Assembly (NCBI GenBank): GCA_964016885.1
Contig: OZ024749.1
Coordinates: 31,248,001 to 31,312,000 of the forward strand
DNA length: 64,000 nucleotides
Source of the DNA: Eledone cirrhosa
Lineage: Eukaryota
Direction: 5' to 3'
The notes beneath the pieces are model-generated. The model saw nothing but the letters and a program-made list of their open reading frames with translations. It did not search any database and was not told the origin of the DNA. The translations under genes were made by a program, and so were the position numbers. Positions 4,725 to 60,436 of the stretch are shown here, in pieces; the first letter of the stretch is position 1, and the number at the start of each line of letters is the position of its first letter.

Positions 4725-5206
4725 TATATATATATCCTTCCCTCTCTTTCACTGAGGTATTCAATCCAGAGAATGAGAGAGAGAAAAAATCTTTGTTGCG
4801 TTGATTACCATTTTTTTTCATTTCTGTCATCCTCCTCTCTCTCTCTTTCTCTCTCTTTCTCTCTCTTTTTCTCTCTCTTTCTCTATCATTCACTCTCTCT
4901 ATTTCTCACTCTCTCTCTCTCCCCCTCACTCTCCCTCACATACTCCATGGCTCTTTCTCAATCATTCTCCCTCACTCCTCACACCGCTCTTTCCCTCGCT
5001 CTCTCTCACTCACTCCCTCTCTCTCTTTCTCACTAACTCCCTCTCTCTCTCTCTTTCCCCTCTCCTTCCCTGGAATATTCAATCCACACAACAAGTAACA
5101 ATTACTGTGTTGATTACCCTTTTTCTTTTTTTACATCTTCATTCTATGTTTTGTATTCCTAATCTCTTCCTTCCAATGTCACTATCAATATATATACATA
5201 CATAGA

Positions 5207-5603: not shown

Positions 5604-5793
5604 AATTGTTTCTACTTTTGGCACAAGGCCAGCAATTATCCCAGTGTATTACTTGTGCTTTATTTTATCGACCCCGTAAGGATGAAAGGCAAAGTTAACT
5701 TCGGCGGGATTTGAACTCAGACCATAAAGGGCCGTAACTCTTTGCTGCAAAACATGGTGTCCGACCCTCTATCGATACTGCCAATTCACCGCC
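5604..5793 (-). mobile_element. tRNA-derived SINE, family 1
   Basis: Box A tggcagtatcga, box B gagttcaaatcc, core gcctttcatccttacggggtcgataaaataaag. At least 8 copies in the window. Confidence 0.9.
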
Positions 5794-5811
5794 ACATAGA
5801 TGTATATAATA

Positions 5812-6661: not shown

Positions 6662-6875
6662 TGGGCGGTGGATTGGCAGTATCGGTAGACGGTCGGACGC
6701 CATGTTTTGCAGCATAGAGTTACGGCCCTTTATAATCTGAGTTCAAATCCCGTCGAGGTTAACTTTGCCTTTCATCCTTACGGGATCGATAAAATAAAGT
6801 ACCAGTTACGCACTGGGGTCGTTTTAATCGACTTTCTCCTCCCCGAAAATTGATGGCCTTGTGCCTACATAAGAA
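6662..6875 (+). mobile_element. tRNA-derived SINE, family 1
   Basis: Same A/B boxes and core as 5604-5793. Confidence 0.9.
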
Positions 6876-7065
6876 ACTCAGAAACCATCTTGCTACCTCT
6901 CTTTCTAACTCTCTTTCTAACTCTCTCTCTCTCTCTTTCTCTGGAGAAGAAGAGAGACAGAGAAAGAGAGAGAGAAAATAAAGGAATGAACAATAGAGAG
7001 ATGAAAGTGTAGGGGTGAGCTGCTTAATTCGTGGATAGACAGATAGGTAGATAGATAAATATATA

Positions 7066-7286
7066 TAATTGTTTCTATTTTTTGGTACAAGGCCAATGAT
7101 TTTGGGGGAGGGGAAAGTCATTTAAATAGACCCCAGTGCGTGACTGGTACTTTATTTTATCGACCCTGTTAGGATGAAAGGCTAAGTTAATCTCGACGGT
7201 ATTTGAACTCAGATCATAATGGTCCGTGAGTCTCTGCTGTGAAGCATGGCGTCCGACCCTCTACCGATACTGACAATCCACCACCC
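7066..7286 (-). mobile_element. tRNA-derived SINE, family 1
   Basis: Reverse-complement copy, inverted relative to 6662-6875. Confidence 0.88.
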
Positions 7287-7330
7287 TAGATAGATAGATA
7301 TATAATAGATATCTTTTTTTATAGATAGAT

Positions 7331-7425
7331 ATCTTTATTTGCCACAAGGGCGTACAAAAAGGGGACATTACAAGACGTGACGGCGGGGGTTTTACATAAA
7401 AATCATATAACTTTAATATTAACAA
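7331..7425 (-). mobile_element. Tx1-like LINE 3' stub in (GATA)n
   Basis: tctttatttgccacaagggc..aaaaaggggaca resembles the 3' termini at 7740, 11660, 12189 and 14323. Confidence 0.65.
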
Positions 7426-7585
7426 CAATAGATAAGCAGATAGATAAATATATATATAGAGAGAGATATATAGTTAGATATATAGATGTATAGATAGATA
7501 TACAGATAGAAACATTGATAGATAGATGCATAGATAGGTAGATAGGTAGATAGATAGATATACAGATAGAAACATAAATAGATAT

Positions 7586-7690
7586 GTTTCTTTATTAGCC
7601 ACAGGGGCACAAAAGAAGGGGAAAAATACAAAGGGGGAAGTTTACATACAATAAAAACGTGTAAAATACTATCACAAATGCAATTTAAAC
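7586..7690 (-). mobile_element. Tx1-like LINE 3' stub in (GATA)n
   Basis: ttctttattagccacaggggcacaaaagaagggga..tacaaagggggaagtttaca matches the 3' UTR ends of the longer copies. Confidence 0.75.
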
Positions 7691-7739
7691 ATAGATAGAT
7701 AGCTGCATAGATAGATAGATGTATAGATATATAGATATG

Positions 7740-10700
7740 TTTCTTTTATTTGCCACTAGGGCATCAAAAGTGGGACAAGTACAAAGGGGGGAGTTTACAC
7801 AAAAAGGCGTCCTCAATAAGGAGGAGGTAATAACAAAATATAAAAATAAAATAAGATATAACGAAAAATAAAATTGATAGCAAAATCCTCAATAGAGAGG
7901 AGGCGCCTTGGGGGGTCGCACACACCCCCGAAAAAAGTGTGCAACCCTTCTCCTCAGGAGCACAGAGAACGGGTGCTCCCTTGGTCTTTCATCTTCCTCA
8001 CCTATAGTCTGATGTAGAGTGAAGGCCCATTCACACAGGCCATTCTCGCCACTTTCACCCATCTTTCATAGAAACGGCTGGGGTGCAGCACCTCTCTCTC
8101 CATCCTGATCCTTCTTCCAAAATGATATCGGAAGAAACGGACCAGTTGTTGGCCAGAGAGAAAGGTGCCTGACCTCAGTCCTTTCAGACGCGTCCACCAT
8201 ACAACCTCTTTCGCCATGGCTATTACGCACAGAAACACCGCCTCTGCTTCATCTTTGAAGCGGGGAGGCGGCTTGATCATTACAATAGACTCGGTGGTCA
8301 ACCGGATCGGTCCCACCCTTGACAGCAGTTGTTCGACATAGCCCCACAGATCGGCTACGCCCGAGCAGTGTACCAATGCGTGTGCAAGGGTTTCCTCGTC
8401 GCACACGCATCTGGGACAGATCTTTTTGGCGGGGTCCCTACCCGGGCGCCCGTGTCTGTAGAGCCTTTCTCGAACCGGTAAAGCCCCTCGGTAGCACTGC
8501 CAGGCCAGGGACTTCTGGAAGTTGTCCATAGGTCCCGGGCTGAATGTCCTACCGAACAGGCTGGCCAGTTCGTCCTCCTCCATGTCTAGGGCTTCTCCGA
8601 GGGCGTCGTCGCACCTGCTGCGTACCAGCCCTCTATAGAATGTTGCGGTGGAGTCTCCACTGATAACCGGATCCGCCTGCCAGAGGGCGGTGAGCTCCTG
8701 GGTACACTCAGTGTGCCAGGCGCCCAGTTTTCTTGGTCTTTGCTTGACCCAGGATTGCAGCTCGGTGAGTGAGACGAGTCTGGGAAAGGTTCGTCTCACA
8801 AACGAGGCCCACACCGGTTGTCCGGTGAGGAATACGTAGAGGTGCCGTAGCCTTAATGCGTGTTTACGCATCATTAGCCACGGCATCCCCAGCCCTCCTT
8901 TCGAAGGGTGTGGACAGCAGATGGATCTCCTCACCATAGGAGCCCGCCTCTTCCAAAGGAATTGGAAGAGCGCGCGCTCCATCTTGGTGAGGGTTTCCCT
9001 TGGGCAGGGCACTACGGTCAGGCGGTAGTAGATGACGGACGCTATGTAGGTGTTCGCCACCTCCGCCCGACCTTTCAGGGATAGTTTGCAACTGGCCCAC
9101 TTCTGGGTCAGTGCAAACACCCTGTTCGTAACCTCCGCCCAGTTTTTCTCCACCTGGAGGTCCGGTCCGAACCAGACCCCGAGCAACTTCACCGGGCCCT
9201 CCGTCCAGCGTCCGACGACGCCATCGGAGGGCATCGGTCTGCCCCTCCACGTGCCGAGTTGCAAACCGATCGACTTGTCCCGGTTCAGCTTAGCCCCTGT
9301 GAACTTTTCGTACTCCTCCAGTAAGGTGCCGACCGCCTCGATTTCGGAGGCCGTCGACACCATTACTGTCACGTCATCGGCGTAGGCCGACACCGCTTTC
9401 CGCAATCCCGGTTCCAAAGGGATGCCCTGCAACAACTCCAACTTCCGCAGTAGTGGCTCGAGAGTCAACACATACAGAAGGGAGGAGAGAGGGCACCCTT
9501 GTCGGATGGACCGCGCGATTTTGAACGGCTCCGAGAGGTAGCCGTTCACCTTGACCCTAGAGCAGATGCGGCTGCTGTGCATAGCAGTGATCCAGCCCCT
9601 GAAAACGGGTCCGAAGCCTGCCGCCGCTAGCACCGCATCCAGGTAACCATGGTCGACCCTATCGAACGCCTTAGATTGATCCAAGTTGATCAGAGCCCCA
9701 CCAAAGCCGGGTTCGTTCCCAACCCTCTCTATGATGTATCGCATGAGGTGGAGGTTGTCATGGATGGATCTGGACGGGATAGCGCATGTCTGCGCATCTC
9801 CCACCAGGTTGCCCACGACAAGCGCCAACCTCTTTGCTAGCACCTTGGCCAAAATCTGTAACTCTGTATTTAGCAGAGTTATGGGCCTGAAGTTACGTAT
9901 TTCGTCCCCCTTGTTCTCGTCCTTCCTCACTAGCGTGACTACGCCCTTGGTCATGTACAGGGAATTCTCCCGTTCTGTTGCCAGTTGCAGTAGACCGCCT
10001 CGAGGAGATCGGGGAACAAGTCCGGCATAGCTAGATATAATTCGTAAGGAAGACCATCGAGACCCGGGGATTTGCGTTTGCCGCATTGGCTCAGCACGTC
10101 CTCTATCTCAGCGGCCGAAATCGGCTCCTCGCAGGACTTCGCCTCCCTGTCCGAGAGGCGCGGCAGGCCGTCGAGGTATGGACCGAAGTCCACGTTCCCA
10201 ACCGGCTCCCCGCCCCTCCCGAACAGTCGGGCAAAGTGCCTTTGAAAGGCCTCACACATCTGCCTAGGCTCAAGAATCGCCCGTCCATCCAGGTCTCGCA
10301 AAGACCGGATGGTGGATTTAGTTCCACTGTTGGCCTCTGTCACGTGGGCCCAGCTAACAGCTTTGGTCCCCTCGTTCCCTAGAGTACGTATTTTACTTCG
10401 GACAACGCAGCCTTCGTGCTTCGCGTCGAAAAACTGGCTCAAAGCCGTTCTCGACGCTAGCACTCTGGCCACGTCGCCGCTTCTAATTGCCTCTTCTACT
10501 CTATCTATTAGCTCCCTTTCCTTCCTATTCCTATCCGCAGCTAGAACCTTACTAAATTCTATCGAGACTACTCTAATCTCTCTCTTTAGAGATACCCACC
10601 ACCTGCTGTTGACGATCGCTCCAGTCAACCGTTCCTTAACTAACGTACTAATCCGATTCCTGTAGGCTCTACTTGCCGGCAAGGACAAGTTGAGCTTCCA

Positions 10701-11578
10701 GTAACCGGGGCCCTGTCTATGAGTTCTGTCAAGGTTGACCATGCAGGTCACTAATTTGTGGTCTGAATAGCCAACCATGCGCATTTTTGGACAACTTAAA
10801 AAGTCCTTATCCTTAATTCTAACTAAGAACCTATCTAGGTACGACCTAGATGATCCGCTACGATTTGCCCAAGTCCAGGTTGGCGCAGTCGGAAAATCTA
10901 GTCGATATCTATCGGCCAGGTCAAATCGACCGATTAACCCTTTGAGGCTATTACACCCCTCTCTATTGGGACAGGCCCCTACGTAGTCCCAGCGTGCATC
11001 TAGGATACCATTCCAGTCCCCCACTAATAGCAAGGAGCGGGACGTCCCTAGAAAAGTCTCCAGACGATGGAAGAAGTCCGGCCGCATTGACCCGAAGGGG
11101 CCGTAGGCGGCTACCTAGCTAAACGCTCCGCCTTTACCACTGCCAAGGTCCAGAACCACTAGTCGACCCTCCGGGTCCAAATGTACCATCTGTGTTGCGA
11201 GACCCAGATGTTTTTGCAGCAGAACGACAACTCCACCCCCACCTCCGGGATGACAGAGAGATGCGTGCATCTCAAAGTCATCAAAGGTGGGGGCCAGCTG
11301 TCGCACGTTGCTGATCCGGGCCTCGCAAATAACCATCACATCTATACGTTGTGACCTGAGGTCATTTAGAAGCATTGCTTGCTTCCAAGTTGAGCCCAGG
11401 CCACGCGCATTTAAACAGCCTACTCTTAGCATAGCCATGTTGGTGGTGAAGAGAAAAGGCACTTACCTCTCTGCGTCCCGGGTATCGGGCTGCACAATTT
11501 CCATTAGGGTGGGGGATGGGTTGTTGGGTGGGGTGGTGGTTTGTGGAAGTGTGGGGGCATCAGTGTTTTGTGTGGTTG
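7740..11578 (-). mobile_element. Tx1/L1-clade non-LTR retrotransposon, copy A (5'-truncated in the ORF1 tail)
   Basis: Full ORF2 region plus ~260 bp 3' UTR. (GATA)n on both sides. Confidence 0.93.
8002..11438 (-). pseudogene. ORF2: APE endonuclease + reverse transcriptase + C-terminal zinc knuckle, frameshifted
   Basis: Motifs LNARGL, GDWN, YLDRF, SDHK, SPGLDG, FRPITLLN, KAFDRV, QGCPLS, YADD and CPRC..ETLAHALVHC. Split over three ORFs with frameshifts near 11110 and 9955. Confidence 0.93.
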
Positions 11579-11587
11579 TATAGATAT

Positions 11588-11659
<72 letters not shown>

Positions 11660-11660
<1 letters not shown>

Positions 11661-12168
11661 TTTCTTTTTATTTGCCACCAGGGCATCAAAAGTGGGACAA
11701 GTACAATGGAGGGAGTTTACATAACAAGGCGTCCTCAATAAGGAGGAGGCAATAACAAAGTATAAAAATAAAATACAATATAACAAAATAAATTTTATAA
11801 CAAAATCCTCCATAGGGAGGAGGCGCCTTGGGGGTCGCACACACCCCCGAAAAAAAGTGTGCAACCCTTCTCCTCAGGAGCACAGAGAGGGGGTGCTCCC
11901 TTGATCTTTCCTCTTCCTCACCTATAGTCTGATGTAGAGTGAAGGCCCATTCACACAGGCCATTCTCGCCACTTTCACCCATCTTTCATAAAATCGGCTG
12001 GGGTGCAGCACCTCTCTCTCCATCCTGATCCTTCTTCCGAAATGATATCGGAAGAAACGGACCAGTTGTTGGCCAGAGAGAAAGGTGTCTGACCTCAGTC
12101 CTTTCAGACGCGTCCACCATACAACCTCTTTCGCCATGGCTATTACGCACAGAAACACCGCCTCTCCT
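11660..12168 (-). mobile_element. Tx1-like LINE copy B, ~0.5 kb 3' fragment of the copy A subfamily
   Basis: ORF 11922-12158 is nearly identical to the C-terminus of copy A, and the 3' UTR is similar. Confidence 0.92.
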
Positions 12169-12188
12169 TAGATAGTTAGATAGATAGA

Positions 12189-14297
12189 TTTCTTTATTTA
12201 CCATAAAGGCATAAAAAGAAGGGACAAATACAAAGGGGGAGTTTACATATAATCGAGTAAAAAGGGTGTAACATGAAAATAATCGAAAATAACCTCAAAA
12301 GGGAGGGGACGTGATGGGGGTTGCACACACCCCCGAAAAAGTGTGCAATCCTTTGCCCGGGGAGCACATGGAGAAGGTGCTCCCCTCTCCTTTACTTCTT
12401 TACCTACAGGATGGTATACAGAGAAGGCCCATTTACACGAGCCATTCTCGCCACTATCACCCACCTTTCATAAAACTGCCTGTGGCCAAGCACCTCTCTC
12501 TCCATTCTTATCCTTCTTCCGAAGTGATATCGGAAGAAGTAGACCAGACTATGGCCAGAGAGGAAGTTGCCTGACCTCAGACCTTTCAATCGTGTCCACC
12601 AAACAACCTCTTTCAACATGGCTATTACGCACAGAAAAACCGCCTTTGCTTCCTTTGTGAAGAGGGGAGGCGGTTTGATTGTCATCACGGACTCGGCGGT
12701 CAATTTAATCGGCGCCACCCGCGACAGCAGTTGTTCGGCGTAGCCCCACAGATCAGCCACGCCAGGACATTGCACCAATGCGTGCGCCACGGTTTCTTCG
12801 TGACGCACGCATCTAGGGCAAATCTTTTTTGAGGGATCCCTGCCCGGGCGCCCGTGTCTGTAGAGCCTCTCTCGAACGGGTAGAGCCCCTCGGTAGCACT
12901 GCCAGGCCAGTGACTTCTGGAAGTTGTCCATTGGTCCTGGGCCGAAAGTCCTACCGAACAGGCTGGCCAGTTCGTCTTCTTCCATGTCCAGCGACTCTCC
13001 AAGGGTGTCATCGCTCCTGCTAGCCACCAGCCCTCTATAGAATGATGAGGTGGATTCTCCACCGATGGCCCGGCCCGCTTGCCAGAGAGCCCTGAGCGCC
13101 TGAGCACACTCAGTGTGCCAGTCTCCCAGTTTTCCGGATCTTTGCTTGACCCAGGACTGTAGCTCGGTGAGTGAGACGAGTCTCGGAAAGGCTCGTTTCA
13201 CGAACGGAGCCCACACCGGTTGACCAGTGAGGAATACCTGTAGGTGCCGTAGCCTTAATGCGTGCCTACGCATCATCAACCACGGCATCCCCAGCCCTCC
13301 TTTCGAAGGTTGTTGGCAGCAGATGGATCTTCTCACCATAGGAGGACGCTTCTTCCAAAGAAATTGGAAGAGCATGCGTTCCATGGTGGTGAGTGTTTCC
13401 TTAGGGCAAGGCACGACAGTCAGGCGGTAGTAAGTGACGGACGCTATGTAAATGTTCGCCACCTCCGCCCGGCCTTTTAGGGACAGCTTACACTTGGCCC
13501 ATTTCTGGGTTAGTGCAAACACCTTGTTCGTAACCTCGTTCCAGTTCTTTTCCACCTGGAGGTCCGGTCCAAACCAGACCCCAAGCAACTTTACCGGGCC
13601 CTCCGTCCAGTGTCCGACGACACCGTCAGGAGGCATCGGTTTGCCTCTCCACGTTCCGAGTTGCAGCCCGATGGATTTTTCCCGGTTCAGTTTCGCTCCT
13701 GACAACCTTTCGTACTCCTCCAGTAAGGTACCGATCGCCTCGATCTCCGAGTCGGTTGATACCATTACTGTTACGTCATCGGCGTAGGCCGACACCGCTT
13801 TGCTCAATCCTGGTTCCAGGGGGATACCCTGCAACAACTCCAACTTCCTCAGTAAAGGCTCGAGAGTCAATACGTACAGAAGGGAGGAGAGAGGGCACCC
13901 CTGTCGAATGGATCGTGTGATTTCGAACGGCTTCGAAAGATAGCCGTTCACCTTGATCCTAGAACAGATGTGGTTGCTATGTAGGGCAGTGATCCAGCCT
14001 CTGAAAACAGGACCGAACCCAGCCGCCGCTAGCACCGCATCCAGGTAACCATGGTCGACCCTATCGAAGGCCTTAGACTGATCCAAGTTGATCAGGGCCC
14101 CACCGAAGCCGGGTTTGTTGCCAACCCTCTCTATGATGTATCGCATGAGGTGGAGGTTATCGTGAATGGAGCTGGATGGGATAGCACATGTCTGCGCATC
14201 TCCAACCAGGCCACCCACGACAAGCGCCAACCTCTTTGCTAACACCTTGGCCAAAATCTTTAACTCTGTGTTTAGCAGGGTTATGGGCCGAAAATTC
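12189..14297 (-). mobile_element. Tx1-like LINE copy C, 2.1 kb 3' fragment, second subfamily, open RT frame 12404-14297
   Basis: QGCPLS, YADD and zinc knuckle. The 3' UTR differs from copy A. Confidence 0.93.
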
Positions 14298-14322
14298 TTA
14301 GATAGTTAGATAGATAGATAGA

Positions 14323-16431
14323 TTTCTTTATTTACCATAAAGGCATAAAAAGAAGGGACAAATACAAAGGGGGAGTTTACATATAATCGAGTAAAAAGGG
14401 TGTAACATGAAAATAATCGAAAATAACCTCAAAAGGGAGGGGACGTGATGGGGGTTGCACACACCCCCGAAAAAGTGTGCAATCCTTTGCCCGGGGAGCA
14501 CATGGAGAAGGTGCTCCCCTCTCCTTTACTTCTTTACCTACAGGATGGTATACAGAGAAGGCCCATTTACACGAGCCATTCTCGCCACTATCACCCACCT
14601 TTCATAAAACTGCCTCTGGCCAAGCACCTCTCTCTCCATTCTTATCCTTCTTCCGAAGTGATATCGGAAGAAGTAGACCAGACTATGGCCAGAGAGGAAG
14701 TTGCCTGACCTCAGACCTTTCAATCGTGTCCACCAAACAACCTCTTTCAACATGGCTATTACGCACAGAAAAACCGCCTTTGCTTCCTTTGTGAAGAGGG
14801 GAGGCGGTTTGATTGTCATCACGGACTCGGCTGTCAATTTAATCGGCGCCACCCGCGACAGCAGTTGTTCGGCGTAGCCCCACAGATCAGCCACGCCCGG
14901 ACATTGCACCAATGCGTGCGCCACGGTTTCTTCGTGACGCACGCATCTAGGGCAAATCTTTTTTGAGGGATCCCTGCCCGGGCGCCCGTGTCTGTAGAGC
15001 CTCTCTCGAACGGGTAGAGCCCCTCGGTAGCACTGCCAGGCCAGTGACTTCTGGAAGTTGTCCATTGGTCCTGGGCCGAAAGTCCTACCGAACAGGCTGG
15101 CCAGTTCGTCTTCTTCCATGTCCAGCGACTCTCCAAGGGTGTCATCGCCCCTGCTAGCCACCAGCCCTCTATAGAATGATGAGGTGGATTCTCCACCGAT
15201 GGCCCGGCCCGCTTGCCAGAGAGCCCTGAGCGCCTGAGCACACTCAGTGTGCCAGTCTCCCAGTTTTCCGGATCTTTGCTTGACCCAGGACTGTAGCTCG
15301 GTGAGTGAGACGAGTCTCGGAAAGGCTCGTTTCACGAACGGAGCCCACACCGGTTGACCAGTGAGGAATACCTGTAGGTGCCGTAGCCTTAATGCGTGCC
15401 TACGCATCATCAACCACGGCATCCCCAGCCCTCCTTTCGAAGGTTGTTGGCAGCAGATGGATCTTCTCACCATAGGAGGACGCTTCTTCCAAAGAAATTG
15501 GAAGAGCATGCGTTCCATGGTGGTGAGTGTTTCCTTAGGGCAAGGCACGACAGTCAGGCGGTAGTAAGTGACGGACGCTATGTAAATGTTCGCCACCTCC
15601 GCCCGGCCTTTTAGGGACAGCTTACACTTGGCCCATTTCTGGGTTAGTGCAAACACCTTGTTCGTAACCTCGTTCCAGTTCTTTTCCACCTGGAGGTCCG
15701 GTCCAAACCAGACCCCAAGCAACTTTACCGGGCCCTCCGTCCAGTGTCCGACGACACCATCGGGAGGCATCGGTCTGCCTCTCCACGTTCCGAGTTGCAG
15801 CCCGATGGATTTTTCCCGGTTCAGTTTCGCTCCTGACAACCTTTCGTACTCCTCCAGTAAGGTACCGATCGCCTCGATCTCCGAGTCGGTTGATACCATT
15901 ACTGTTACGTCATCGGCGTAGGCCGACACCGCTTTGCTCAATCCTGGTTCCAGGGGGATACCCTGCAACAACTCCAACTTCCTCAGTAAAGGCTCGAGAG
16001 TCAATACGTACAGAAGGGAGGAGAGAGGGCACCCCTGTCGAATGGATCGTGTGATTTCGAACGGCTTCGAAAGGTAGCCGTTCACCTTGATCCTAGAACA
16101 GATGTGGTTGCTATGTAGGGCAGTGATCCAGCCTCTGAAAACAGGACCGAACCCAGCCGCCGCTAGCACCGCATCCAGGTAACCATGGTCGACCCTATCG
16201 AAGGCCTTAGACTGATCCAAGTTGATCAGGGCCCCACCGAAGCCGGGTTTGTTGCCAACCCTCTCTATGATGTATCGCATGAGGTGGAGGTTATCGTGAA
16301 TGGACCTGGATGGGATAGCACATGTCTGCGCATCTCCAACCAGGCCACCCACGACAAGCGCCAACCTCTTTGCTAACACCTTGGCCAAAATCTTTAACTC
16401 TGTGTTTAGCAGGGTTATGGGCCGAAAATTC
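14323..16431 (-). mobile_element. Tx1-like LINE copy D, near-identical to copy C at 2134-bp offset, open RT frame 14538-16431
   Basis: Same 5' truncation point. About 9 substitutions seen relative to copy C. Confidence 0.93.
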
Positions 16432-16849
16432 TTAGATAGTTAGATAGATAGATAGATAGATAGATAGGGAGATAGATATATAGTTATCTTGAAAGTAATT
16501 TAGATGAGAAAAAGTATAAAACATATGATAACAAAATCTGTTAGAACAACAACGAAGCTATAAACCAAATGTTCATCTTCCCATTTTTCTCTGTGTAAAC
16601 CAATTAACTTTTTATTAAATAAATAAACACAGCAGATTAAAATGTTTGGATAATAAAATTGTTTAAGCGAATGGAAAAAAGAAATGGAATTTGAAAATGT
16701 AAAATTTTGCAAATTTATAAAGATTTGTGTTATAATTATTATTGTTATTATTATTAATATATATTGTATCTTCATGTTATTGTTTAGAGATAATTTATGT
16801 ATGGAGATAATTGTTAATGTTTTGTTATTCTTCTTGGTGATGTTCTTGT

Positions 16850-17184: not shown

Positions 17185-18390
17185 AAGCAGCAGCAGCAGC
17201 AAAAGCGGTAGTAGTAGTAGTAGTTGTAGTAACAGCAGCAGTAGTAACAGTAGTAGTACTTGTTGCTGTATCTGTTGTTGTTGTTCTAGTAGTTGCTGAT
17301 GATGATATGGGTAGTTATTATAACTATGGTTGTTCTAACAGAGACTGTGTTGTTGTTGTTGGTGGTGGTGGTGCTGTTGTTGTTGTTGTTGTTGTTTTGT
17401 TGTTGTTGTTGTTGTTGTTTTTGTTGTTGTTGTTGAATTTGTTGTTGAATTTGTAGCTGTTGTTACACATATTTTTGTTGTTGCTGTTGTAATTATGTAA
17501 TGTTTTTTTGTAGGTTTTGTTGTAGTTGTTGTTAAAGTCGTAGTTGCTTTTGTTGTTGGATTGGCAGTATTGGTAGAGAGTCGGACGCCATGCTTCGCAG
17601 CATAGAGTTACGACCCTTTACGGTCTGAGTTCAAATCCCGCCCGCCGAGGTTTACTTTGCCTTTCATCCTTACGGGGTCGGTCGATAAAATAAAGTACCA
17701 GTAATGCACTGGAATAATTGCTGGCCTTGTGCCAAAAGTAGAAACACTTATTATTCCTGTACTTGTGGATGTTTTTGTAGTTATTGTTGTTGTTGTTGTT
17801 GTTGTTTTTATTGTTGCAGTTGTTGCTGCTGTACTTGTAGTAGTTGTTGTCATTGTAGTTGACACTGTAGTTGCTGTAGTTGTTGTACTTGCTGTTGTTG
17901 TAGTAGTTAATACTATAGTTGTTGTTGCTGTTGTTGTAGTAGTTATTGCTGTAGTTGTTGTTGCTGTTGTTGTAGTAGTTATTACAGTAGCTGATGTAGT
18001 TGCTGTTGTTGTAGTTATTACTGTAGGTGTTGTTGCTGTTGTTGTTGTAGTTATTGCTGTAGTAGTTATTGCTGTAGTTGTTGTAGTTATTGCTGTAGTT
18101 GTTGTTGCTGTTGTTGTTGTAGTTATTGCTGTAGTAGTTATTGCTGTAGTAGTTATTGCTGTAGTTGTAGTAGTTATTGCTGTAGTTGTTGTTGCTGTTG
18201 TTGTTGTAGTTATTGCTGTAGTAGTTATTGCTGTAGTTGTAGTAGTTATTGCTGTAGTTGTAGTAGTTATTGCTGTAGTTGTTGTACTTGCTGTTGTTGT
18301 AGTCATTACTGTAGTTGTTTAAGGTTATAGTTGTAGTTGCTGTAGTAGTTGTTGTTGTCATTCTAGTTGCTACTGTTGCTGTTACTACTT
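16850..18390. repeat. (GTA/GTT/GCT)n trinucleotide low-complexity tract interrupted by a SINE
   Basis: Directly visible. Source of the poly-L/V/T pseudo-ORFs. Confidence 0.95.
17556..17746 (+). mobile_element. tRNA-derived SINE, family 1
   Basis: Same boxes, core and 3' end gccaaaagtagaaac. Confidence 0.9.
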
Positions 18391-24467: not shown

Positions 24468-24562
<95 letters not shown>

Positions 24563-24894
24563 TTAGATAGATAGACAGATATACAGATATATATGTATAT
24601 ATAGATAGATAGATAGCTAGATAGATAGATAGATAGATAGAAAGAAAGCTAGATAGATAGAGAGATAAGTAGCTAGATAGATCTCCATACTTATGGATTC
24701 TGTCAGTGGAAACTGTTGACAGAATTCAATGTTTCCTTTAGAATCCCAGAACAATATAATTCCCTGTCTTCATTATAACGACGGAAGTCTGTAAAAGGAA
24801 AACGGAAGTTGTATTACTAATTGTTATTCTTCATGTTTGGCCTTCCCTCATACTAACAGCGAAAGTTCGGCAAAGACCTAGAACTGAATAACGG

Positions 24895-26595: not shown

Positions 26596-26784
26596 AATTG
26601 TTTCTACTTTTGGCACAAGGCTGGGGATTACTCATGCATTACTGGTACTTTATTTTATCGATCCTGTAAAGATGAAAGGCAAAGTTAACCTCAGCGGGAT
26701 TTGAACACAGATCATAAAAGGAGGTAACTCTATGCTTGAAAGCTTGGCGTCCGACCCTCTACCGATACTGCCAATCCACCGCCT
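26596..26784 (-). mobile_element. tRNA-derived SINE, family 1
   Basis: Homologous to 5604-5793. Confidence 0.88.
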
Positions 26785-29095: not shown

Positions 29096-29286
29096 AATTG
29101 ATTCTACTTTTGGCACAAGGCCAGCAGTTACCCCAGTGTATTACTGGGGCTTTATTTTATCGACACCGTAAGGATGAAAGGCAAAGTTAACCTTGGTGGG
29201 ATTTGAACTCAGACCATAAAGAGCTGTAACTCGGTGATGCAAAGCATGGCGTCCGACCCTCTACCGATTCTGGCAATCCACCACCC
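29096..29286 (-). mobile_element. tRNA-derived SINE, family 1
   Basis: Homologous to 5604-5793. Confidence 0.88.
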
Positions 29287-34373: not shown

Positions 34374-37300
34374 ATAGATATGTCCTATGTAGATATGTCC
34401 TGTGTAGATATGTCCTGTGTAGATATGTCCTATGTAGATATGTCCTCTGTAGATATGTCCTGTGTAGATATGTCCTGTGTAGATATGTCCTGTGTAGATA
34501 TGTCCTGTGTAGATATGTCCTCTGTAGATATGTCCTGTGTAGATATGGCCTCTGTAGATATGTCCTGTGTAGATATGTCCTGTGTAGATATGTCCTATGT
34601 AGATATGTCCTCTGTAGATATGTCCTGTGTAGATATGTCCTGTGTAGATATGTCCTCTGTAGATATGTCCTGTGTAGATATGTCCTCTGTAGATATGTCC
34701 TCTGTAGATATGTCCTCTGTAGATATGTCCTCTGTAGATATGTCCTCTGTAGATATGTCCTCTGTAGATATGTCCTCTGTAGATATGTCCTGTGTAGATA
34801 TGTCCTGTGTAGATATGTCCTGTGTAGATATGTCCTCTGTAGATATGTCCTGTGTAGATATGGCCTCTGTAGATATGTCCTGTGTAGATATGTCCTGTGT
34901 AGATATGTCCTGTGTAGATATGTCCTGTGTAGATATGTCCTGTGTAGATATGTCCTCTGTAGATATGTCCTGTGTAGATATGTCCTCTGTAGATATGTCC
35001 TCTGTAGATATGTCCTGTGTAGATATGTCCTCTGTAGATATGTCCTGTGTAGATATGTCCTGTGTAGATATGTCCTGTGTAGATATGTCCTGTGTAGATA
35101 TGTCCTCTGTAGATATGTCCTGTGTAGATATGTCCTGTGTAGATATGTCCTGTGTAGATATGTCCTGTGTAGATATGTCCTGTGTAGATATGGCCTCTGT
35201 AGAAATGTCCTCTGTAGATATGTCCTGTGTAGATATGTCCTGTGTAGATATGTCCTCTGTAGATATGTCCTCTGTAGATATGTCCTGTGTAGATATGTCC
35301 TGTGTAGATATGTCCTGTGTAGATATGTCCTCTGTAGATATGTCCTGTGTAGATATGGCCTGTGTAGATATGTGCTCTGTAGATATGTTCTGTGTAGATA
35401 TGTCCTGTGTAGATATGTCCTGTGTAGATATGTCCTGTGTAGATATGGCCTCTGTAGAAATGTCCTCTGTAGAGATGTCCTGTGTAGATATGTCCTCTGT
35501 AGATATGTCCTCTGTAGATATGTCCTGTGTAGATATGTCGTCTGTAGATATGTCCTGTGTAGATATGTCCTGTGTAGATATGTCCTGTGTAGATATGTCC
35601 TCTGTAGATATGTCCTGTGTAGATATGTCCTCTGTAGATATGTCCTGTGTAGATATCTCCTCTGTAGATATGTCCTGTGTAGAAATGTCGTCTGTAGATA
35701 TGTCCTGTGTAGATATGTCCTCTGTAGATATGTCCTGTGTAGATATGTCCTCTGTAGATATGTCCTGTGTAGATATGTCCTGTGTAGATATGTCCTCTGT
35801 AGATATGTCCTGTGTAGATATGTCCTCTGTAGATATGTCCTGTGTAGATATCTCCTCTGTAGATATGTCCTGTGTAGAAATGTCCTCTGTAGATATGTCC
35901 TGTGTAGATATGTCCTCTGTAGATATGTCCTGTGTAGATATGTCCTCTGTAGATATGTCCTGTGTAGATATGACCTGTGTAGATATGTCCTCTGTAGATA
36001 TGTCCTGTGTAGATATGTCCTGTGTAGATATGTCCTGTGTAGATATGTCCTGTGTAGATATGTCCTGTGTAGATATGTCCTCTGTAGATATGTCCTCTGT
36101 AGATATGTCCTGTGTAGATATGTCCTGTGTAGATATGTCCTCTGTAGATATGTCCTGTGTAGATATGTCCTGTGTAGATATGTCCTGTGTAGATATGTCA
36201 GGTGTAGATATGTCCTGTGTAGATATGTCCTGTGTAGATATGTCCTGTGTAGTTATGTCCTGTGTAGATATGTCCTGTGTAGATATGTCCTGTGTAGAAA
36301 TGTCCTCTGTAGATATGTCCTCTGTAGATATGTCCTGTGTAGATATGTCCTATGTAGATATGTCCTCTGTAGATATGTCGTCTGTAGATATGTCCTGTGT
36401 AGATATGTCCTGTGTAGATATGTCCTGTGTAGATATGTCCTGTGTAGATATGTCCTGTGTAGATATGTCCTCTATAGATATGTCCTGTGTAGATATGTCC
36501 TGTGTAGATATGTCCCCTGTAGATATGTCCCCTGTAGATATGTCCTGTGTAGATATGTCCTGTGTAGATATGTCCTGTGTAGATATTTCATATGTAGATA
36601 TGTCCTGTGTAGATATGTCCTGTGTAGATATGTCCTGTGTAGATATGTCCTGTGTAGATATGTCCCCTGTAGATATGTCCTCTGTAGATATGTCCTGTGT
36701 AGATATGTCCTGTGTAGATATGTCCTGTGTAGATATGTCCTCTGTAGATATGTCCTGTGTAGATATGGCCTGTGTAGATATGTGCTCTGTAGATATGTTC
36801 TGTGTAGATATGTCCTGTGTAGATATGTCCTGTGTAGATATGTCCTGTGTAGATATGGCCTCTGTAGAAATGTCCTCTGTAGATATGTCCTGTGTAGATA
36901 TGTCCTCTGTAGATATGTCCTCTGTAGATATGTCCTGTGTAGATATGTCCTGTGTAGATATGTCCTGTGTAGACATGTCCTCTGTAGATATGTCCTCTGT
37001 AGATATGTCCTGTGTAGATATGTCCTCTGTAGATATGTCCTGTGTAGATATGTCCTGTGTAGATATGTCCTCTGTAGATATGTCCTGTGTAGATATGTCC
37101 TGTGTAGATATGTTCTCTGTAGATATGTCCTGTGTAGATATGTCCTGTGTAGATATGTCCTGTGTAGATATGTCCTCTGTAGATATGTCCTGTGTAGATA
37201 TGTCCTGTGTAGATATGTCCTGTGTAGATATGTCCTCTGTAGATATGTCCTGTGTAGATATGTCCTCTGTAGATATGTCCTGTGTAGATATGTTCTCTGT

Positions 37301-40300
37301 AGATATGTCCTGTGTAGATATGTCCTGTGTAGATATGTCCTGTGTAGATATGTCCTGTGTAGATATGTCCTGTGTAGATATTTCATATGTAGATATGTCC
37401 CCTGTAGATATGTCCTGTGTAGATATGTCCTGTGCAGATATGTCCTGTGTAGATATGTCCTGTGTAGATATGTCCCCTGTAGATATGTCCTCTGTAGATA
37501 TGTCCTGTGTAGATATGTCCTGTGTAGATATGTCCTGTGTAGATATGTCCTCTGTAGATATGTTCTCTGTAGATATGTCCTGTGTAGATATGTCCTCTGT
37601 AGATATGTCCTCTGTAGATATGTCCTGTGTAGATATGTCCTCTGTAGATATGTCCTGTGTAGATATGTCCTGTGTAGATATGTCCTCTGTAGATATGTCC
37701 TGTGTAGATATGGCCTGTGTAGATATGTGCTCTGTAGATATGTTCTGTGTAGATATGTCCTGTGTAGATATGTCCTGTGTAGATATGTCCTCTGTAGATA
37801 TGTCCTGTGTAGATATGTCCTGTGTAGATATGTTCTCTGTAGATATGTCCTGTGTAGATATGTCCTGTGTAGATATGTCCTCTGTAGATATGTCCTGTGT
37901 AGATATGTCCTGTGTAGATATGTCCTGTGTAGATATGTCCTGTGTAGATATGTCCTCTGTAGATATGTCCTCTGTAGATATGTCCTGTGTAGATATGTCC
38001 TGTGTAGATATGTCCTCTGTAGATATGTCCCCTGTAGATATGTCGTCTGTAGATATGTCCTGTGTAGATATGTCCTGTGTAGATATGTCCTGTGTAGATA
38101 TGTCCTGTGTAGATATGTCCTCTGTAGATATGTCCTCTGTAGATATGTCCTCTGTAGATATGTCCTGTGTAGATATGTTCTCTGTAGATATGTCCTGTGT
38201 AGATATGTCCTGTGTAGATATGTCCTGTGTAGATATGTCCTGTGTAGATATGTCCTGTGTAGATATTTCATATGTAGATATGTCCCCTGTAGATATGTCC
38301 TGTGTAGATATGTCCTGTGTAGATATGTCCTGTGTAGATATGTCCTGTGTAGATATGTCCCCTGTAGATATGTCCTCTGTAGATATGTCCTGTGTAGATA
38401 TGTCCTCTGTAGATATGTCCTGTGTAGATATGTCCTGTGTAGATATGTCCTGTGTAGATATGTCCTGTGTAGATATGTCCTGTGTAGATATGTCCTCTGT
38501 AGATATGTCCTCTGTAGATATGTCCTGTGTAGATATGTTGTCTGTAGATATGTCCTGTGTAGATATGTCCTGTGTAGATATGTCCTGTGTAGATATGTCC
38601 TCTGTAGATATGTCCTCTGTAGATATGTCCTGTGTAGATATGTCGTCTGTAGATATGTCCTCTGTAGATATGTCCTGTGTAGATATGTCCTGTGTAGATA
38701 TGTCCTCTGTAGATATGTCCTGTGTAGATATGTCCTGTGTAGATATGTCCTGTGTAGATATGTCCTGTGTAGATATGTCCTCTGTAGATATGTCCTCTGT
38801 AGATATGTCCTGTGTAGATATGTCCTGTGTAGATATGTCCTCTGTAGATATGTCCCCTGTAGATATGTCGTCTGTAGATATGTCCTGTGTAGATATGTCC
38901 TGTGTAGATATGTCCTGTGTAGATATGTCCTGTGTAGATATGTCCTCTGTAGATATGTCCTCTGTAGATATGTCCTCTGTAGATATGTCCTGTGTAGATA
39001 TGTCCTGTGTAGATATGTCCTGTGTAGATATGTCCTGTGTAGACATGTTCTGTGTAGATATGTCCTGTGTAGATATGTCCTGTGTAGATATGTCCTCTGT
39101 AGATATGTCCTGTGTAGATATGTCCTGTGTAGATATGTTCTCTGTAGATATGTTCTCTGTAGATATGTCCTGTGTAGATATGTCCTGTGTAGATATGTCC
39201 TGTGTAGATATGTCCTGTGTAGACATGTCCTGTGTAGATATTTCATATGTAGATATGTCCTGTGTAGATATGTCCTGTGTAGATATGTCCTGTGTAGATA
39301 TGTCCTGTGTAGATATGTCCTGTGTAGATATTTCATATGTAGATATGTCCCCTGTAGATATGTCCTGTGTAGATATGTCCTGTGTAGATATGTCCTGTGT
39401 AGATATGTCCCCTGTAGATATGTCCTCTGTAGATATGTCCTGTGTAGATATGTCCTGTGTAGATATGTCCTGTGTAGATATGTCCTCTGTAGATATGTTC
39501 TCTGTAGATATGTCCTGTGTAGATATGTCCTGTGTAGATATGTCCTCTATAGATATGTCCTGTGTAGATATGTCCTGTGTAGATATGTCCCCTGTAGATA
39601 TGTCCCCTGTAGATATGTCCTGTGTAGATATGTCCTGTGTAGATATGTCCTGTGTAGATATGTCCTGTGTAGACATGTTCTGTGTAGATATGTCCTGTGT
39701 AGATATGTCCTGTGTAGATATGTCCTCTGTAGATATGTCCTGTGTAGATATGTCCTGTGTAGATATGTTCTCTGTAGATATGTCCTGTGTAGATATGTCC
39801 TGTGTAGATATGTCCTGTGTAGATATGTCCTGTGTAGACATGTCCTGTGTAGATATTTCATATGTAGATATGTCCTGTGTAGATATGTCCTGTGTAGATA
39901 TGTCCTGTGTAGATATGTCCTGTGTAGACATGTCCTGTGTAGATATTTCATATGTAGATATGTCCCCTGTAGATATGTCCTGTGTAGATATGTCCTGTGT
40001 AGTTATGTCCTGTGTAGATATGTCCTGTGTAGATATGTCCTCTGTAGATATGTCCTGTGTAGATATGGCCTGTGTAGATATGTGCTCTGTAGATATGTTC
40101 TGTGTAGATATGTCCTGTGTAGATATGTCCTGTGTAGATATGTCCTCTGTAGATATGTCCTGTGTAGATATGTCCTGTGTAGATATGTTCTCTGTAGATA
40201 TGTCCTGTGTAGATATGTCCCCTGTAGATATGTCCTGTGTAGATATGTCCTGTGTAGATATGTCCTGTGTAGATATTTCATATGTAGATATGTCCCCTGT

Positions 40301-43300
40301 AGATATGTCCTGTGTAGATATGTCCTGTGTAGTTATGTCCTGTGTAGATATGTCCTGTGTAGATATGTCCTGTGAAGAAATGTCCTCTGTAGATATGTCC
40401 TCTGTAGATATGTCCTGTGTAGATATGTCCTATGTAGATATGTCCTCTGTAGATATGTCGTCTGTAGATATGTCCTGTGTAGATATGTCCTGTGTAGATA
40501 TGTCCTGTGTAGATATGTCCTGTGTAGATATGTCCTGTGTAGATATGTCCTCTATAGATATGTCCTGTGTAGATATGTCCTGTGTAGATATGTCCCCTGT
40601 AGATATGTCCCCTGTAGATATGTCCTGTGTAGATATGTCCTGTGTAGATATGTCCTGTGTAGATATTTCATATGTAGATATGTCCCCTGTAGATATGTCC
40701 TGTGTAGATATGTCCTGTGTAGATATGTCCTGTGTAGATATGTCCTGTGTAGACATGTCCTGTGTAGATATTTCATATGTAGATATGTCCTGTGTAGATA
40801 TGTCCTCTGTAGATATGTCCTGTGTAGATATGTGCTGTGTAGATATGTTCTCTGTAGATATGTCCTGTGTAGATATGTCCTGTGTAGTTATGTCCTGTGT
40901 AGATATGTCCTGTGTAGATATGTCCTCTGTAGATATGTCCTGTGTAGATATGGCCTGTGTAGATATGTGCTCTGTAGATATGTTCTGTGTAGATATGTCC
41001 TGTGTAGATATGTCCTGTGTAGATATGTCCTCTGTAGATATGTCCTGTGTAGATATGTCCTGTGTAGATATGTTCTCTGTAGATATGTCCTGTGTAGATA
41101 TGTCCCCTGTAGATATGTCCTGTCTAGATATGTCCTGTGTAGATATGTCCTGTGTAGATATTTCATATGTAGATATGTCCCCTGTAGATATGTCCTGTGT
41201 AGATATGTCCTGTGTAGTTATGTCCTGTGTAGATATGTCCTGTGTAGATATGTCCTGTGTAGAAATGTCCTCTGTAGATATGTCCTCTGTAGATATGTCC
41301 TGTGTAGATATGTCCTATGTAGATATGTCCTCTGTAGATATGTCGTCTGTAGATATGTCCTGTGTAGATATGTCCTGTGTAGATATGTCCTGTGTAGATA
41401 TGTCCTGTGTAGATATGTCCTGTGTAGATATGTCCTCTATAGATATGTCCTGTGTAGATATGTCCTGTGTAGATATGTCCCCTGTAGATATGTCCCCTGT
41501 AGATATGTCCTGTGTAGATATGTCCTGTGTAGATATGTCCTGTGTAGATATTTCATATGTAGATATGTCCCCTGTAGATATGTCCTGTGTAGATATGTCC
41601 TGTGTAGATATGTCCTGTGTAGATATGTCCTGTGTAGATATGTCCCCTGTAGATATGTCCTCTGTAGATATGTCCTGTGTAGATATGTCCTGTGTAGATA
41701 TGTCCTGTGTAGACATGTCCTCTGTAGATATGTCCTCTGTAGATATGTCCTGTGTAGATATGTCCTCTGTAGATATGTCCTGTGTAGATATGTCCTGTGT
41801 AGATATGTCCTCTGTAGATATGTCCTGTGTAGATATGTCCTGTGTAGATATGTTCTCTGTAGATATGTCCTGTGTAGATATGTCCTGTGTAGATATGTCC
41901 TGTGTAGATATGTCCTGTGTAGACATGTCCTCTGTAGATATGTCCTCTGTAGATATGTCCTGTGTAGATATGTCCTGTGTAGATATGTCCTGTGTAGACA
42001 TGTCCTCTGTAGATATGTCCTGTGTAGATATGTTCTCTGTAGATATGTCCTGTGTAGATATGTCCTGTGTAGATATGTCCTGTGTAGATATGTCCTGTGT
42101 AGATATGTCCTGTGTAGATATGTCCTGTGTAGATATGTCCTGTGTAGATATGTCCTGTGTAGATATGTCCTGTGTAGATATGTCCTATGTAGATATGTCC
42201 TATGTAGATATGTCCTCTGTAGATATGTCCTGTGTAGATATGTCCTCTGTAGATATGTCCTATGTAGATATGTCCTGTGTAGATATGTCCTGTGTAGATA
42301 TGTCCTGTGTAGATATGTCCTGTGTAGATATGTCCTCTGTAGATATGTCCTGTGTAGATATGTCCTCTGTAGATATGTCCTGTGTAGATATGTCCTCTGT
42401 AGATATGTCCTGTGTAGATATGTCCTGTGTAGATATGTCCTGTGTAGATATGTCCTGTGTAGATATGTCCTGTGTTGATATGTGCTGTGTAGATATGTCC
42501 TGTGTAGATATGTCCTGTGTAGATATGTCCTGTGTAGATATGTCCTCTGTAGATATGTCCTTTGTAGATATGGCCTCTGTAGATATGTCCTGTGTAGATA
42601 TGTCCTATGTAGATATGTCCTGTGTAGATATGTCCTGTGTAGATATGTCCTGTGTAGATATGTCCTGTGTAGATATGTCCTCTGTAGATATGTCCTGTGT
42701 AGATATGTCCACTGTAGATATGTCCTGTGTAGATATGTCCTGTGTAGATATGTCCTCTGTAGATATGTCCTCTGTAGATATGTCCTGTGTAGATATGTCC
42801 TCTGTAGATATGTCCTCTGTAGATATGTCCTCTGTAGATATGTCCTGTGTAGATATGTCCTGTGTAGAAATGTCCTGTGTAGATATGTCCTGTGTAGATA
42901 TGTCCTGTGTAGATATGTCCTATGTAGATATGTCCTCTGTAGATATGTCCTCTGTAGATATGTCCTGTGTAGATATGTCCTCTGTAGATATGTCCTATGT
43001 AGATATGTCCTGTGTAGATATGTCCTGTGTAGATATGTCCTCTGTAGATATGTCCTATGTAGATATGTCCTGTGTAGATATGTCCTGTGTAGATATGTCC
43101 TGTGTAGATATGTCCTGTGTAGATATGTCCCCTGTAGATATGTCCTGTGTAGATATGTCCTGTGTAGATATGTCCTGTGTAGATATGTCCTGTGTAGATA
43201 TGTCCCCTGTAGATATGTCCTGTGTAGATATGTCCTGTGTAGATATGTCCTGTGTAGATATGTCCTATGTAGATATGTCCTGTGTAGATATGTCCTGTGT

Positions 43301-46300: not shown

Positions 46301-48190
46301 CTGTGTAGATATGTCCTGTGTAGATATGTCCTGTGTAGATATGTCCTGTGTAGATATGTCCCCTGTAGATATGTCCTGTGTAGATATGTCCTGTGTAGAT
46401 ATGTCCTGTGTAGATATGTCCTGTGTAGATATGTCCCCTGTAGATATGTCCTGTGTAGATATGTCCTGTGTAGATATGTCCTATGTAGATATGTCCTGTG
46501 TAGATATGTCCTGTGTAGATATGTCCCCTGTAGCTATGTCCTGTGTAGATATGACCTCTGTAGAAATGTCCTCTGTAGATATGTCCTGTGTAGATATGTC
46601 CTGTGTAGATATGTCCTGTGTAGATATGTCCTGTGTAGATATCTCCTGTGTAGATATGTCCTCTGTAGATATGTCCTGTGTAGATATGTCCTGTGTAGAT
46701 ATGTCCTGTGTAGATATGTCCTGTGTAGATATGTCCTCTGTAGATATGACCTGTGTAGATATGTCCTCTGTAGATATGTCCTCTGTAGATATGTCCTCTG
46801 TAGATATGTCCTGTGTAGATATGTCCTGTGTAGACATGTCCTCTGTAGATATGTCCTCTGTAGATATGTCCTGTGTAGATATGTCCTCTGTAGATATGTC
46901 CTGTGTAGATATGTCCTGTGTAGATATGTCCTCTGTAGATATGGCCTGTGTAGATATGTCCTGTGTAGATATGTTCTCTGTAGATATGTCCTGTGTAGAT
47001 ATGTCCTGTGTAGATATGTCCTGTGTAGATATGTCCTGTGTAGACATGTCCTCTGTAGATATGTCCTCTGTAGATATGTCCTGTGTAGATATGTCCTCTG
47101 TAGATATGTCCTGTGTAGATATGTCCTGTGTAGATATGTCCTGTGTAGACATGTCCTGTGTAGATATGTCCTGTGTAGATATGTTCTCTGTAGATATGTC
47201 CTGTGTAGATATGTCCTGTGTAGATATGTCCTGTGTAGATATGTCCTGTGTAGATATGTCCTGTGTAGATATGTCCTGTGTAGATATGTCCTGTGTAGAT
47301 ATGTTCTCTGTAGATATGTCCTGTGTAGATATGTCCTGTGTAGATATGTCCTATGTAGATATGGCCTCTGTAGATATGTCCTCTGTAGATATGTCCTGTG
47401 TAGATATGTCCTCTGTAGATATGTCCTATGTAGATATGTCCTGTGTAGATATGTCCTGTGTAGATATGTCCTGTGTAGATATGTCCTGTGTAGATATGTC
47501 CTCTGTAGATATGTCCTGTGTAGATATGTCCTCTGTAGATATGTCCTGTGTAGATATGTCCTCTGTAGATATGTCCTCTGTAGATATGTCCTGTGTAGAT
47601 ATGTCCTGTGTAGATATGTCCTGTGTAGATATGTCCTGTGTTGATATGTGCTGTGTAGATATGTCCTGTGTAGATATGTCCTGTGTAGATATGTCCTGTG
47701 TAGATATGTCCTCTGTAGATATGTCCTGTGTAGATATGGCCTCTGTAGATATGTCCTGTGTAGATATGTCCTATGTAGATATGTCCTGTGTAGATATGTC
47801 CTGTGTAGATATGTCCTGTGTAGATATGTCCTGTGTAGATATGTCCTCTGTAGATATGTCCTGTGTAGATATGTCCTCTGTAGATATGTCCTGTGTAGAT
47901 ATGTCCTCTGTAGATATGTCCTGTGTAGATATGTCCTGTGTAGATATGTCCTCTGTAGATATGTCCTCTGTAGATATGTCCTGTGTAGATATGTCCTCTG
48001 TAGATATGTCCTCTGTAGATATGTCCTCTGTAGATATGTCCTGTGTAGATATGTCCTCTGTAGATATGTCCTGTGTAGATATGTCCTCTGTAGATATGTC
48101 CTGTGTAGATATGTCCTGTGTAGAAATGTCCTGTGTAGATATGTCCTGTGTAGATATGTCCTGTGTAGATATGTCCTGTGTAGATATGTA
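34374..48190. repeat. 15-bp tandem satellite (TAGATATGTCCTSTG)n, ~920 units
   Basis: Directly visible. Phase breaks only near 44910, 45030 and 48185. Confidence 0.99.
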
Positions 48191-52735: not shown

Positions 52736-52743
52736 TATTATTA

Positions 52744-60353: not shown

Positions 60354-60436
<83 letters not shown>

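Follow-up and report, generated by a model that had tools for sequence, protein, structure and literature searches.

Repeated insertion of L1/Tx1-type LINE copies into one GATA repeat tract of Eledone cirrhosa

Long interspersed nuclear elements (LINEs) with an apurinic/apyrimidinic endonuclease (APE) are inserted via target-primed reverse transcription, and specificity set by the endonuclease (EN) is established for Tx1L, TRAS1/SART1 and R1Bm. In the available text of the relevant sources, Kibi and Koshi of fish were assigned to (TC)n and (TTC)n, respectively, and a crocodilian Tx1 group to (TTCC)n/(TTTC)n (PMC4494074, PMC3812793). The choice of microsatellites by APE-type LINEs was described as poorly understood (PMC3812793), and a known specificity hairpin, when grafted, did not carry specificity over (PMC1950540). 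Other simple-repeat targets were reported for Waldo (ACAY), Mino (AC), Dong (TAA), Togen (TG) and Tx1-1_ACar (telomere repeat) (PMC3812793, PMC4640811, PMC10088271). An element was considered target-specific if one sequence type was found in more than 20% of its genome-wide flanks (PMC4494074). For Octopus vulgaris, 80 L1-Tx1 families were listed, 13 of them recently active, with short interspersed nuclear elements (SINEs) accounting for 11.6% of the genome (PMC13282606). The stretch analysed here, hereafter the window, comprises 64,000 nucleotides of Eledone cirrhosa contig OZ024749.1 (GCA_964016885.1, positions 31,248,001 to 31,312,000) and is AT-rich, microsatellite-rich animal DNA. Six L1/Tx1-type LINE copies, all on the minus strand, lay head-to-tail within one degenerate GATA tract (7333-16430). 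The evidence supported a GATA repeat that pre-existed at this locus and was hit repeatedly.

The stacked copies and their target duplications

The copies were located at 7333-7427 (stub S1, 95 bp, 5' boundary uncertain), 7585-7686 (stub S2, 102 bp), 7738-11576 (copy A, 3839 bp), 11659-12167 (copy B, 509 bp), 12190-14296 (copy C, 2107 bp) and 14324-16430 (copy D, 2107 bp). These coordinates bore out the arrangement given in an initial annotation of the window, namely, six minus-strand copies in a single GATA tract. All copies were 5'-truncated, and the stubs were LINE 3' ends, with a hairpin at about 7340-7352 and AATAAAG in S1 and a hairpin at about 7597-7609 and AATAAAGAAACA in S2. Copy A retained a 264-nt 3' untranslated region (UTR; hairpin at about 7751-7763), the whole second open reading frame (ORF2) and the probable end of ORF1. 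Copy C had a 214-nt 3' UTR, and its frame for reverse transcriptase (RT) and zinc finger was open for 631 codons, the same number as in D. The 3' terminus of every copy was AATAAA(A0-2)G plus zero to five A-rich bases, followed directly by TATC/ATC repeats. All six 3' junctions started with TATC or ATC on one strand, and poly(A) was absent from all six 3' ends, as the annotation had stated for ends of the AATAAA(A)GA type that abut TATC without a long poly(A). At least two GATA words were present within 24 bp on both sides of all six copies, compared with 89 of 39,799 positions in the background, from which the stack and the window's minisatellite were left out, although six copies in one tract are not independent trials. 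The claim of at least two subfamilies was also upheld. Copies A and B were 95.4% identical and belonged to one subfamily, A and D were 86.2% identical, and the stubs were 67-79% identical to the other copies over about 60-70 nt; about four LINE sequence types were thus placed on one GATA target. No further copy of the family occurred in the window among the matches listed by tblastn and by blastn with the 3' ends. The purity of the spacers along the stack was 0.53, 0.34, 0.51, 0.87, 0.59, 0.65 and 0.69, and any age gradient along the stack was weak.

Target site duplications (TSDs) of 15, 18 and 23 bp were identified for three of five inferred insertion events. Each flank match was compared with pseudo-junctions in the GATA-like DNA of the window, with the 15-bp minisatellite excluded. 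The TSD of copy A (7720-7737 and 11577-11594) was an exact 18-bp match containing two variant units, was found twice in the window and was reached in score by none of 968 pseudo-sites; its right copy continued into a near-pure GATA run ending at 11658. The S2 TSD (7570-7584 and 7687-7701) was 15 bp long with one mismatch and was matched by two of 968 pseudo-sites, both of which fell within an empty paralog at 7490-7544. The 23-bp TSD of the C/D pair was matched by five of 966 pseudo-sites, all inside the C-D spacer. The flank matches of copy B (up to 21 bp of plain GATA, equalled by 26 of 970 pseudo-sites) and of S1 (7 bp, equalled by 68 of 970) were uninformative.

The empty paralog corresponded to the uninterrupted S2 insertion site. 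It matched the left flank at 20 of 20 positions, the two TSD copies at 13 of 15 and 14 of 15, and the right flank at 17 of 20. The region 7490-7584 was a tandem duplication of about 60 bp in the degenerate GATA tract, one copy of which was this empty site. Moreover, the TSDs of A and S2 began immediately past AAAGAAACA without an extra repeat unit; therefore, no tail was added. Taken with the paralog, the informative TSDs of A, S2 and C/D indicated that the GATA repeat predates the insertions and is not an element tail.

Copies C and D started at the same base and differed by nine substitutions in 2130 bp (five synonymous, four not) and one GATA unit. The 22-nt word TTAGATAGTTAGATAGATAGAT was found three times in the window (12168, 14298 and 16432), which placed it in the left TSD copy (12167-12189, with its last bases possibly shared with the 5' end of B), in the spacer between C and D together with one GATA unit (14297-14323), and beyond D at the right end of the GATA tract (16431-16483). 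The pair was probably a single insertion that was doubled later between its TSD copies, yielding three copies of the word. Hence, five insertion events were counted instead of the six first proposed, and six independent insertions were rejected on the common breakpoint and the 99.6% identity. The proposal that the word is the target duplication of B, C and D held for C/D and was rejected for B, since only one flank of B carries it. Two further GATA tracts in the window, at 24500-24682 and 60270-60372, contained no LINE copies, and both carried the variant unit ATAGTTAGATAG of the word (24559 and 60272). The argument for C/D was therefore carried by the shared breakpoint and not by the variant. 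A possible but doubtful origin of the pair would be an assembly artefact that lined up two haplotypes, or a source that was truncated beforehand and inserted twice: the 0.42% divergence could be allelic, and in a single unit with its TSDs, unequal exchange would have only about 25 bp of homology to act on, whereas the exact register of all three word copies argues for doubling, as does a twin of the same kind in the sister lineage described below, though it also comes from an assembly.

The element, its sister arrays and the choice of target

ORF2 of copy A (8002-11438, minus strand; stop at 11115-11117, frameshift near 9955) encoded an APE endonuclease (Exo_endo_phos, E 1.3e-8), an RT (RVT_1, E 5e-27) and zf-RVT (E 5e-6). 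Two hallmarks of the L1 group and Tx1 clade were present: the ORF2 carries the APE endonuclease at its N-terminus, the RT, and a zinc motif at its C-terminus, and the copies show 5' truncation and TSDs. Human L1 ORF2p was matched at E 3e-9 in a HMMER alignment, and the EN of A retained the N, E, Y, D, N, D and H residues aligned with L1 and Tx1L. Just upstream, 37 codons and a stop (11463-11576, minus strand) were assigned by position only as the probable ORF1 end, and no homology was found for them. The codon differences between A and D comprised 144 synonymous and 85 nonsynonymous changes; this excess indicated that both descend from selected, active elements. Protein searches returned 538 and 347 matches, with the best 120 listed for each. 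Among the matches listed, the closest named relative was from Argonauta hians (62%), followed by Sepia pharaonis, which made an octopod host probable; Tx1L (YTX2_XENLA) was the only named element (36% over 57% of D, E 9e-56), and no named L1 and no labelled Kibi or Koshi appeared. The RT core was spanned by 193 of the 215 listed proteins and the other 22 were dropped; 79 rows entered a quick tree and 46 hand-picked rows were analysed with IQ-TREE. In the latter, the window elements, Argonauta, Sepia and other rows formed one clade (100/99) and Tx1L a separate one (100/99), in a tree with an open backbone, no L1 outgroup and a bootstrap that had not settled. The stack LINE likely belongs to the Tx1 clade. 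An ESM Atlas search returned generic RVT_1/zf-RVT clusters only. A 61%-identical fragment of the stack LINE (P0005) was named as a protein of a Herbaspirillum metagenome-assembled genome (MAG), probably by contamination.

A contig scan with broader alignment confirmed 104 of 133 candidates, of which the best 80 were kept, corresponding to 77 loci. Sixty-two of these lay on 16 contigs of record CAXXMW01 (L001-L058, L060, L072, L076 and L077). This GTDB genome record is titled Arenicella, and its contigs are largely head-to-tail full-length LINEs of eukaryote type, contig 8 showing a run of at least 12 consecutive ends; they are probably eukaryote (probably host) DNA inside a bacterial MAG bin. 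The sister elements carried an ORF1 of 723 aa before an ORF2 of 1155 aa, and nearly all ORF2 products were 42-43% identical to D. All 66 sister 3' ends on the 16 contigs, which were located by the GGCCT(N)GTGCC/AATAAA motif, showed this hairpin form and AATAAA and lacked poly(A). In 58 cases the 3' end gave way to a short word and then to a full-length head, in three to a truncated unit and in three to an unrelated flank, and in two the segment was too short to classify. Each of the three unrelated flanks opened with the word of its own array. Adjoining units were 98.5-100% identical over 2 kb. One adjacent pair of truncated units had a shared breakpoint and 14 substitutions in 3.1 kb, resembling C/D. 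Neither (GATA)3 nor (TATC)3 was present in any of the 77 fetched loci, and the 3' UTRs of the window LINEs gave low-complexity matches only against these loci. The sister arrays were stacked on non-GATA words, and stacking was therefore common to both lineages and GATA was not; judged from these sequences, stacking appears to characterise the lineage, with GATA as one of many targets. The initial idea of a GATA lineage that re-targets one site was thus retained for this locus, where the repeat pre-existed and was hit repeatedly, and was not extended to the sister lineage.

A telomeric role of the HeT-A/TART or SART/TRAS type was rejected because the window stack is interstitial and at least three sister arrays end in ordinary flank; (TTAGGG)3 or (TTAGG)3 was found in none of 62 sister loci. 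More distant L1/Tx1-like elements (29-36%) were observed among U1, U2 and 5S genes in MAG records CBDAUV01 and CBDHHR01 (L061-L063, L066, L067 and L074), with U1 at L062:4749-4912, about 250 nt beyond the end of the ORF. Targeting of small nuclear RNA/5S clusters by these elements is possible, and the DNA is of eukaryote origin.

The words of nine sister subfamilies were unrelated (77% mismatch), with one word type per subfamily. In one subfamily, 30 junctions contained 11 distinct 15-nt words with one consensus, mismatch (ungapped) amounted to 14.5% in the word and to 7.1% in the neighbouring end of the element, and the consensus word opened two distinct end flanks. The variants round one consensus and the two end flanks therefore pointed to real word selection at several sites. 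Variation in ORF2 was counted over 1155 columns in eight subfamilies, the ninth (EN 43%) being left out; 982 columns were invariant and four had at least four states. Two of these four most variable columns were the adjacent EN residues 63-64 (shuffle P 0.011, post hoc; numbering of L003, ORF2 at L003:2453-5920). These residues aligned with Q69 and K70 of human L1, where A has a longer Gly-rich loop, and likely lie in a DNA-contact loop. Lys70 of L1 was reported to contact DNA, on the second strand at -4 to -6 (PMC8565326).

What the sequence shows directly is the junction anatomy, three TSDs (15, 18 and 23 bp), an empty paralog of the S2 site and the lack of poly(A). With reasonable, if not high, confidence, we interpret the stack as five target-primed insertions in which EN nicked the GATA strand and the TSDs regenerated targets, with C/D doubled afterwards. 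Judged from the TSD starts, S2 and A would have entered at a first-strand nick between GATA units (C|TATC in the element sense); the same may apply, with less certainty, to B and S1. The 3' hairpin before AATAAAG may be the RNA signal for RT. Each TSD likely recreates the target for the next insertion, and the targeting of one strand would give all copies the same orientation. The C/D insertion would have followed that of B because its TSD ends on the 5' junction of B, and its doubling may have occurred by unequal exchange or slippage between its own TSD copies. Specificity may have been retuned within the lineage via the EN loop aligned with Q69/K70 of human L1.

Other explanations of the stack were weighed. 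The TATC runs could be element-encoded tails, so that the stack built its own repeat; the missing poly(A) would suit such a tail, and in pure repeat a tail and a TSD are indistinguishable for B, C and D. This is very improbable, since the variant-bearing TSDs of A and S2 start right at the element end, the S2 site has an empty paralog, and D, the outermost copy, has GATA upstream of it as well. The encoded tail, which the initial annotation had named as the reading opposed to its own, was excluded at this locus by the TSDs of A, S2 and C/D and the paralog. A general preference for AT-rich or microsatellite DNA, with the tract as a local sink that tolerates insertions, would agree with the single locus, with a window full of microsatellites and with a SINE of another preference (TSDs starting ATTAT) in the same tract. 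We consider it unlikely, as no copy sits in the window's TA, TAA, CAA and TAG tracts, which are far larger, and all six 3' junctions open with TATC or ATC on one strand.

The main rival to EN-set specificity is a target set mainly by RNA-DNA pairing, in which transcripts continue past AATAAAG into the flank of their source copy, this flank anneals at a nicked matching site, EN is loose, and a self-perpetuating memory has been locked on GATA. The window junctions fit both models equally, and poly(A) is lacking in all six window copies and all 66 sister ends. Several findings weigh against our interpretation, and some of them suit pairing. In eight of the nine sister subfamilies the words were unrelated, yet the ENs were 90-96% identical and the bB5-bB6 hairpin, the loop most closely associated with specificity, was near-identical, a pattern that RNA-target pairing would explain as well as EN specificity. 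The words of the sister lineage varied inside single arrays and recurred between arrays; they may move together with units, so that not every word is a local TSD. The loop of residues 63-64 was matched to L1 by way of a single HMMER alignment and an invariant Gly. At the window locus, B and S1 had no informative TSD in the pseudo-site comparison, the nick phase of C/D was one base off, and the window's two other GATA tracts were empty of LINE copies. The stack family was confirmed at none of 39 candidate loci in a contig scan with close alignment and is known from one locus only, and the mechanism is read from sequence. Against pairing, the most variable ORF2 columns cluster in the EN loop that likely touches DNA, and A and S2 lie at variant repeat sites, an imperfect match for a pure tail. 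In TRAS1/SART1 the target is reset when the EN is exchanged, and the Tx1L EN nicks its own target almost exclusively (PMC1919474, PMC1950540). EN-set specificity was hence favoured, and pairing was judged rather improbable.

The 3' hairpin, the SINE and other window features

A 3' hairpin was common to the window LINEs, the sister lineage and an abundant repeat of the window, which we take to be a SINE (Rfam gave no tRNA match). For five LINE ends, RNAalifold predicted a 4-bp stem and a 5-nt loop before AATAAA. In 18 ends, 53 of 54 stem cells paired. The middle stem pair was C-G in the five window LINE ends and G-C in the SINE and sister ends, which counts as one inherited event; the sister lineage carried the GGCCT(N)GTGCC form of the SINE. 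The SINE-like repeats were located at 5606-5800(-), 6663-6880(+), 7070-7285(-), 17554-17745(+), 26600-26783(-), 29100-29286(-), 52744-52820(+) and 53451-53635(+). The third lay in the same tract and orientation as the LINEs, next to the degenerate GATA/TA flank at the left end of the tract (7034-7069), with a hairpin GGC-CTTGT-ACC at about 7083-7095 and an imperfect flank duplication of about 22 bp. The eight ends matched the LINE end at 16-19 of 25 nt, and seven of them were unmatched by any of 127,950 other positions; the LINE-SINE similarity spans only about 25 nt. At their 3' ends the SINE copies had both the hairpin and a closing AGAAACA in common with the LINE lineage. Three of the eight SINE copies had TSDs of 15-19 bp that start with ATTAT, and another had one of 6 bp; two had none, and in two the head was not located. 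These TSDs start with ATTAT and not with GATA, and the LINE partner of the SINE would therefore be a related family and not the GATA one. Such a family, which would end in GGCCTTGTGCC and have ATTAT targets, is a candidate driver of the SINE and should be read as a lead.

A broken LINE at 50800-52750 (minus strand) contained RT, a CCHC motif, a restriction-like nuclease motif and a TAA-repeat end, with RVT_1 as the only Pfam match; by its motifs we presume it to be Dong/R4-like. As a SINE partner, this LINE with a restriction-like endonuclease (50.8-52.75 kb) was rejected, because its tail matched at no more than 12 of 25 positions and the hairpin was absent. An Rfam scan of the window and of three sister loci yielded neither a ribozyme nor a tRNA, and its sole window match, Plastid-psbJ-2 on a TA tract, was taken as chance. 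The minisatellite at 34375-48391 consisted of about 933 copies of a 15-bp unit (TAGATATGTCCTGTG) with 93% matches and contained very long spurious open frames. A Tc1-type transposase frame, open for 326 codons (DDE_3, HTH_Tnp_Tc3_2), was found at 56954-57934 on the minus strand.

Relation to described elements

The stack LINE resembled Kibi and Koshi in being an APE-type LINE in a microsatellite and differed from them in its target, GATA/TATC, which is not a pure pyrimidine repeat. The CT-rich tracts of the window (4835-5054 and 6888-6942) contained no stack-LINE copy. In the literature as far as its text was available, no GATA-targeting Tx1 element, cephalopod Tx1 array or Tx1-SINE pair was found; such targets are often entered in Repbase Reports and Dfam, which the search did not cover, and an earlier description is possible. 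Waldo, Mino, Dong, Togen and Tx1-1_ACar are likewise non-LTR elements on simple repeats, but in the available text their repeats are others, none of them GATA, and all except Tx1-1_ACar belong to other lineages. Tx1L of Xenopus laevis (P0206) shares the EN-RT-zf-RVT layout, whereas it inserts in the Tx1D transposon and falls in a separate clade, and the EN identity to the compared ENs is 23-24%. The L1-Tx1 class of Octopus vulgaris probably holds the stack family; the available text gives no target, TSD, stacking or SINE partner for the families of that class (PMC13282606).

A GATA-targeting family would add a microsatellite target for APE-type LINEs. The sister subfamilies, with a shared bB5-bB6 hairpin, different words and two variable residues in another loop, make it testable with natural sequences whether the EN loop or RNA pairing controls the target, a question that bears on tools for site-specific gene insertion. 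The shared 3' hairpin names a candidate driver lineage for the abundant octopus SINE. Tentatively, a cephalopod-linked Tx1-like lineage may re-target its own sites and switch words very fast (ENs 90-96% identical), through two EN-loop residues or read-through pairing, with GATA as one locked state and a related family driving the dominant octopus SINE. Fast word switching, if true, would yield a naturally occurring set of integrases that are nearly identical yet addressed to different targets.

For stacking, the closest counterpart was SINEU-3/Tx1-Mar of crocodilians, in which tandem insertions sandwich TSDs and were read as sequential and a SINE is partnered with a Tx1 family, according to the available text (PMC4494074). 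Their target is Mariner, whereas in the window LINEs from several subfamilies form the stack, and the shared 3' hairpin is the candidate link to a SINE. The stack LINE likely works as Kibi and Koshi do and stacks in the manner of SINEU-3, on a target that we did not find described, and likely aims at GATA repeats.

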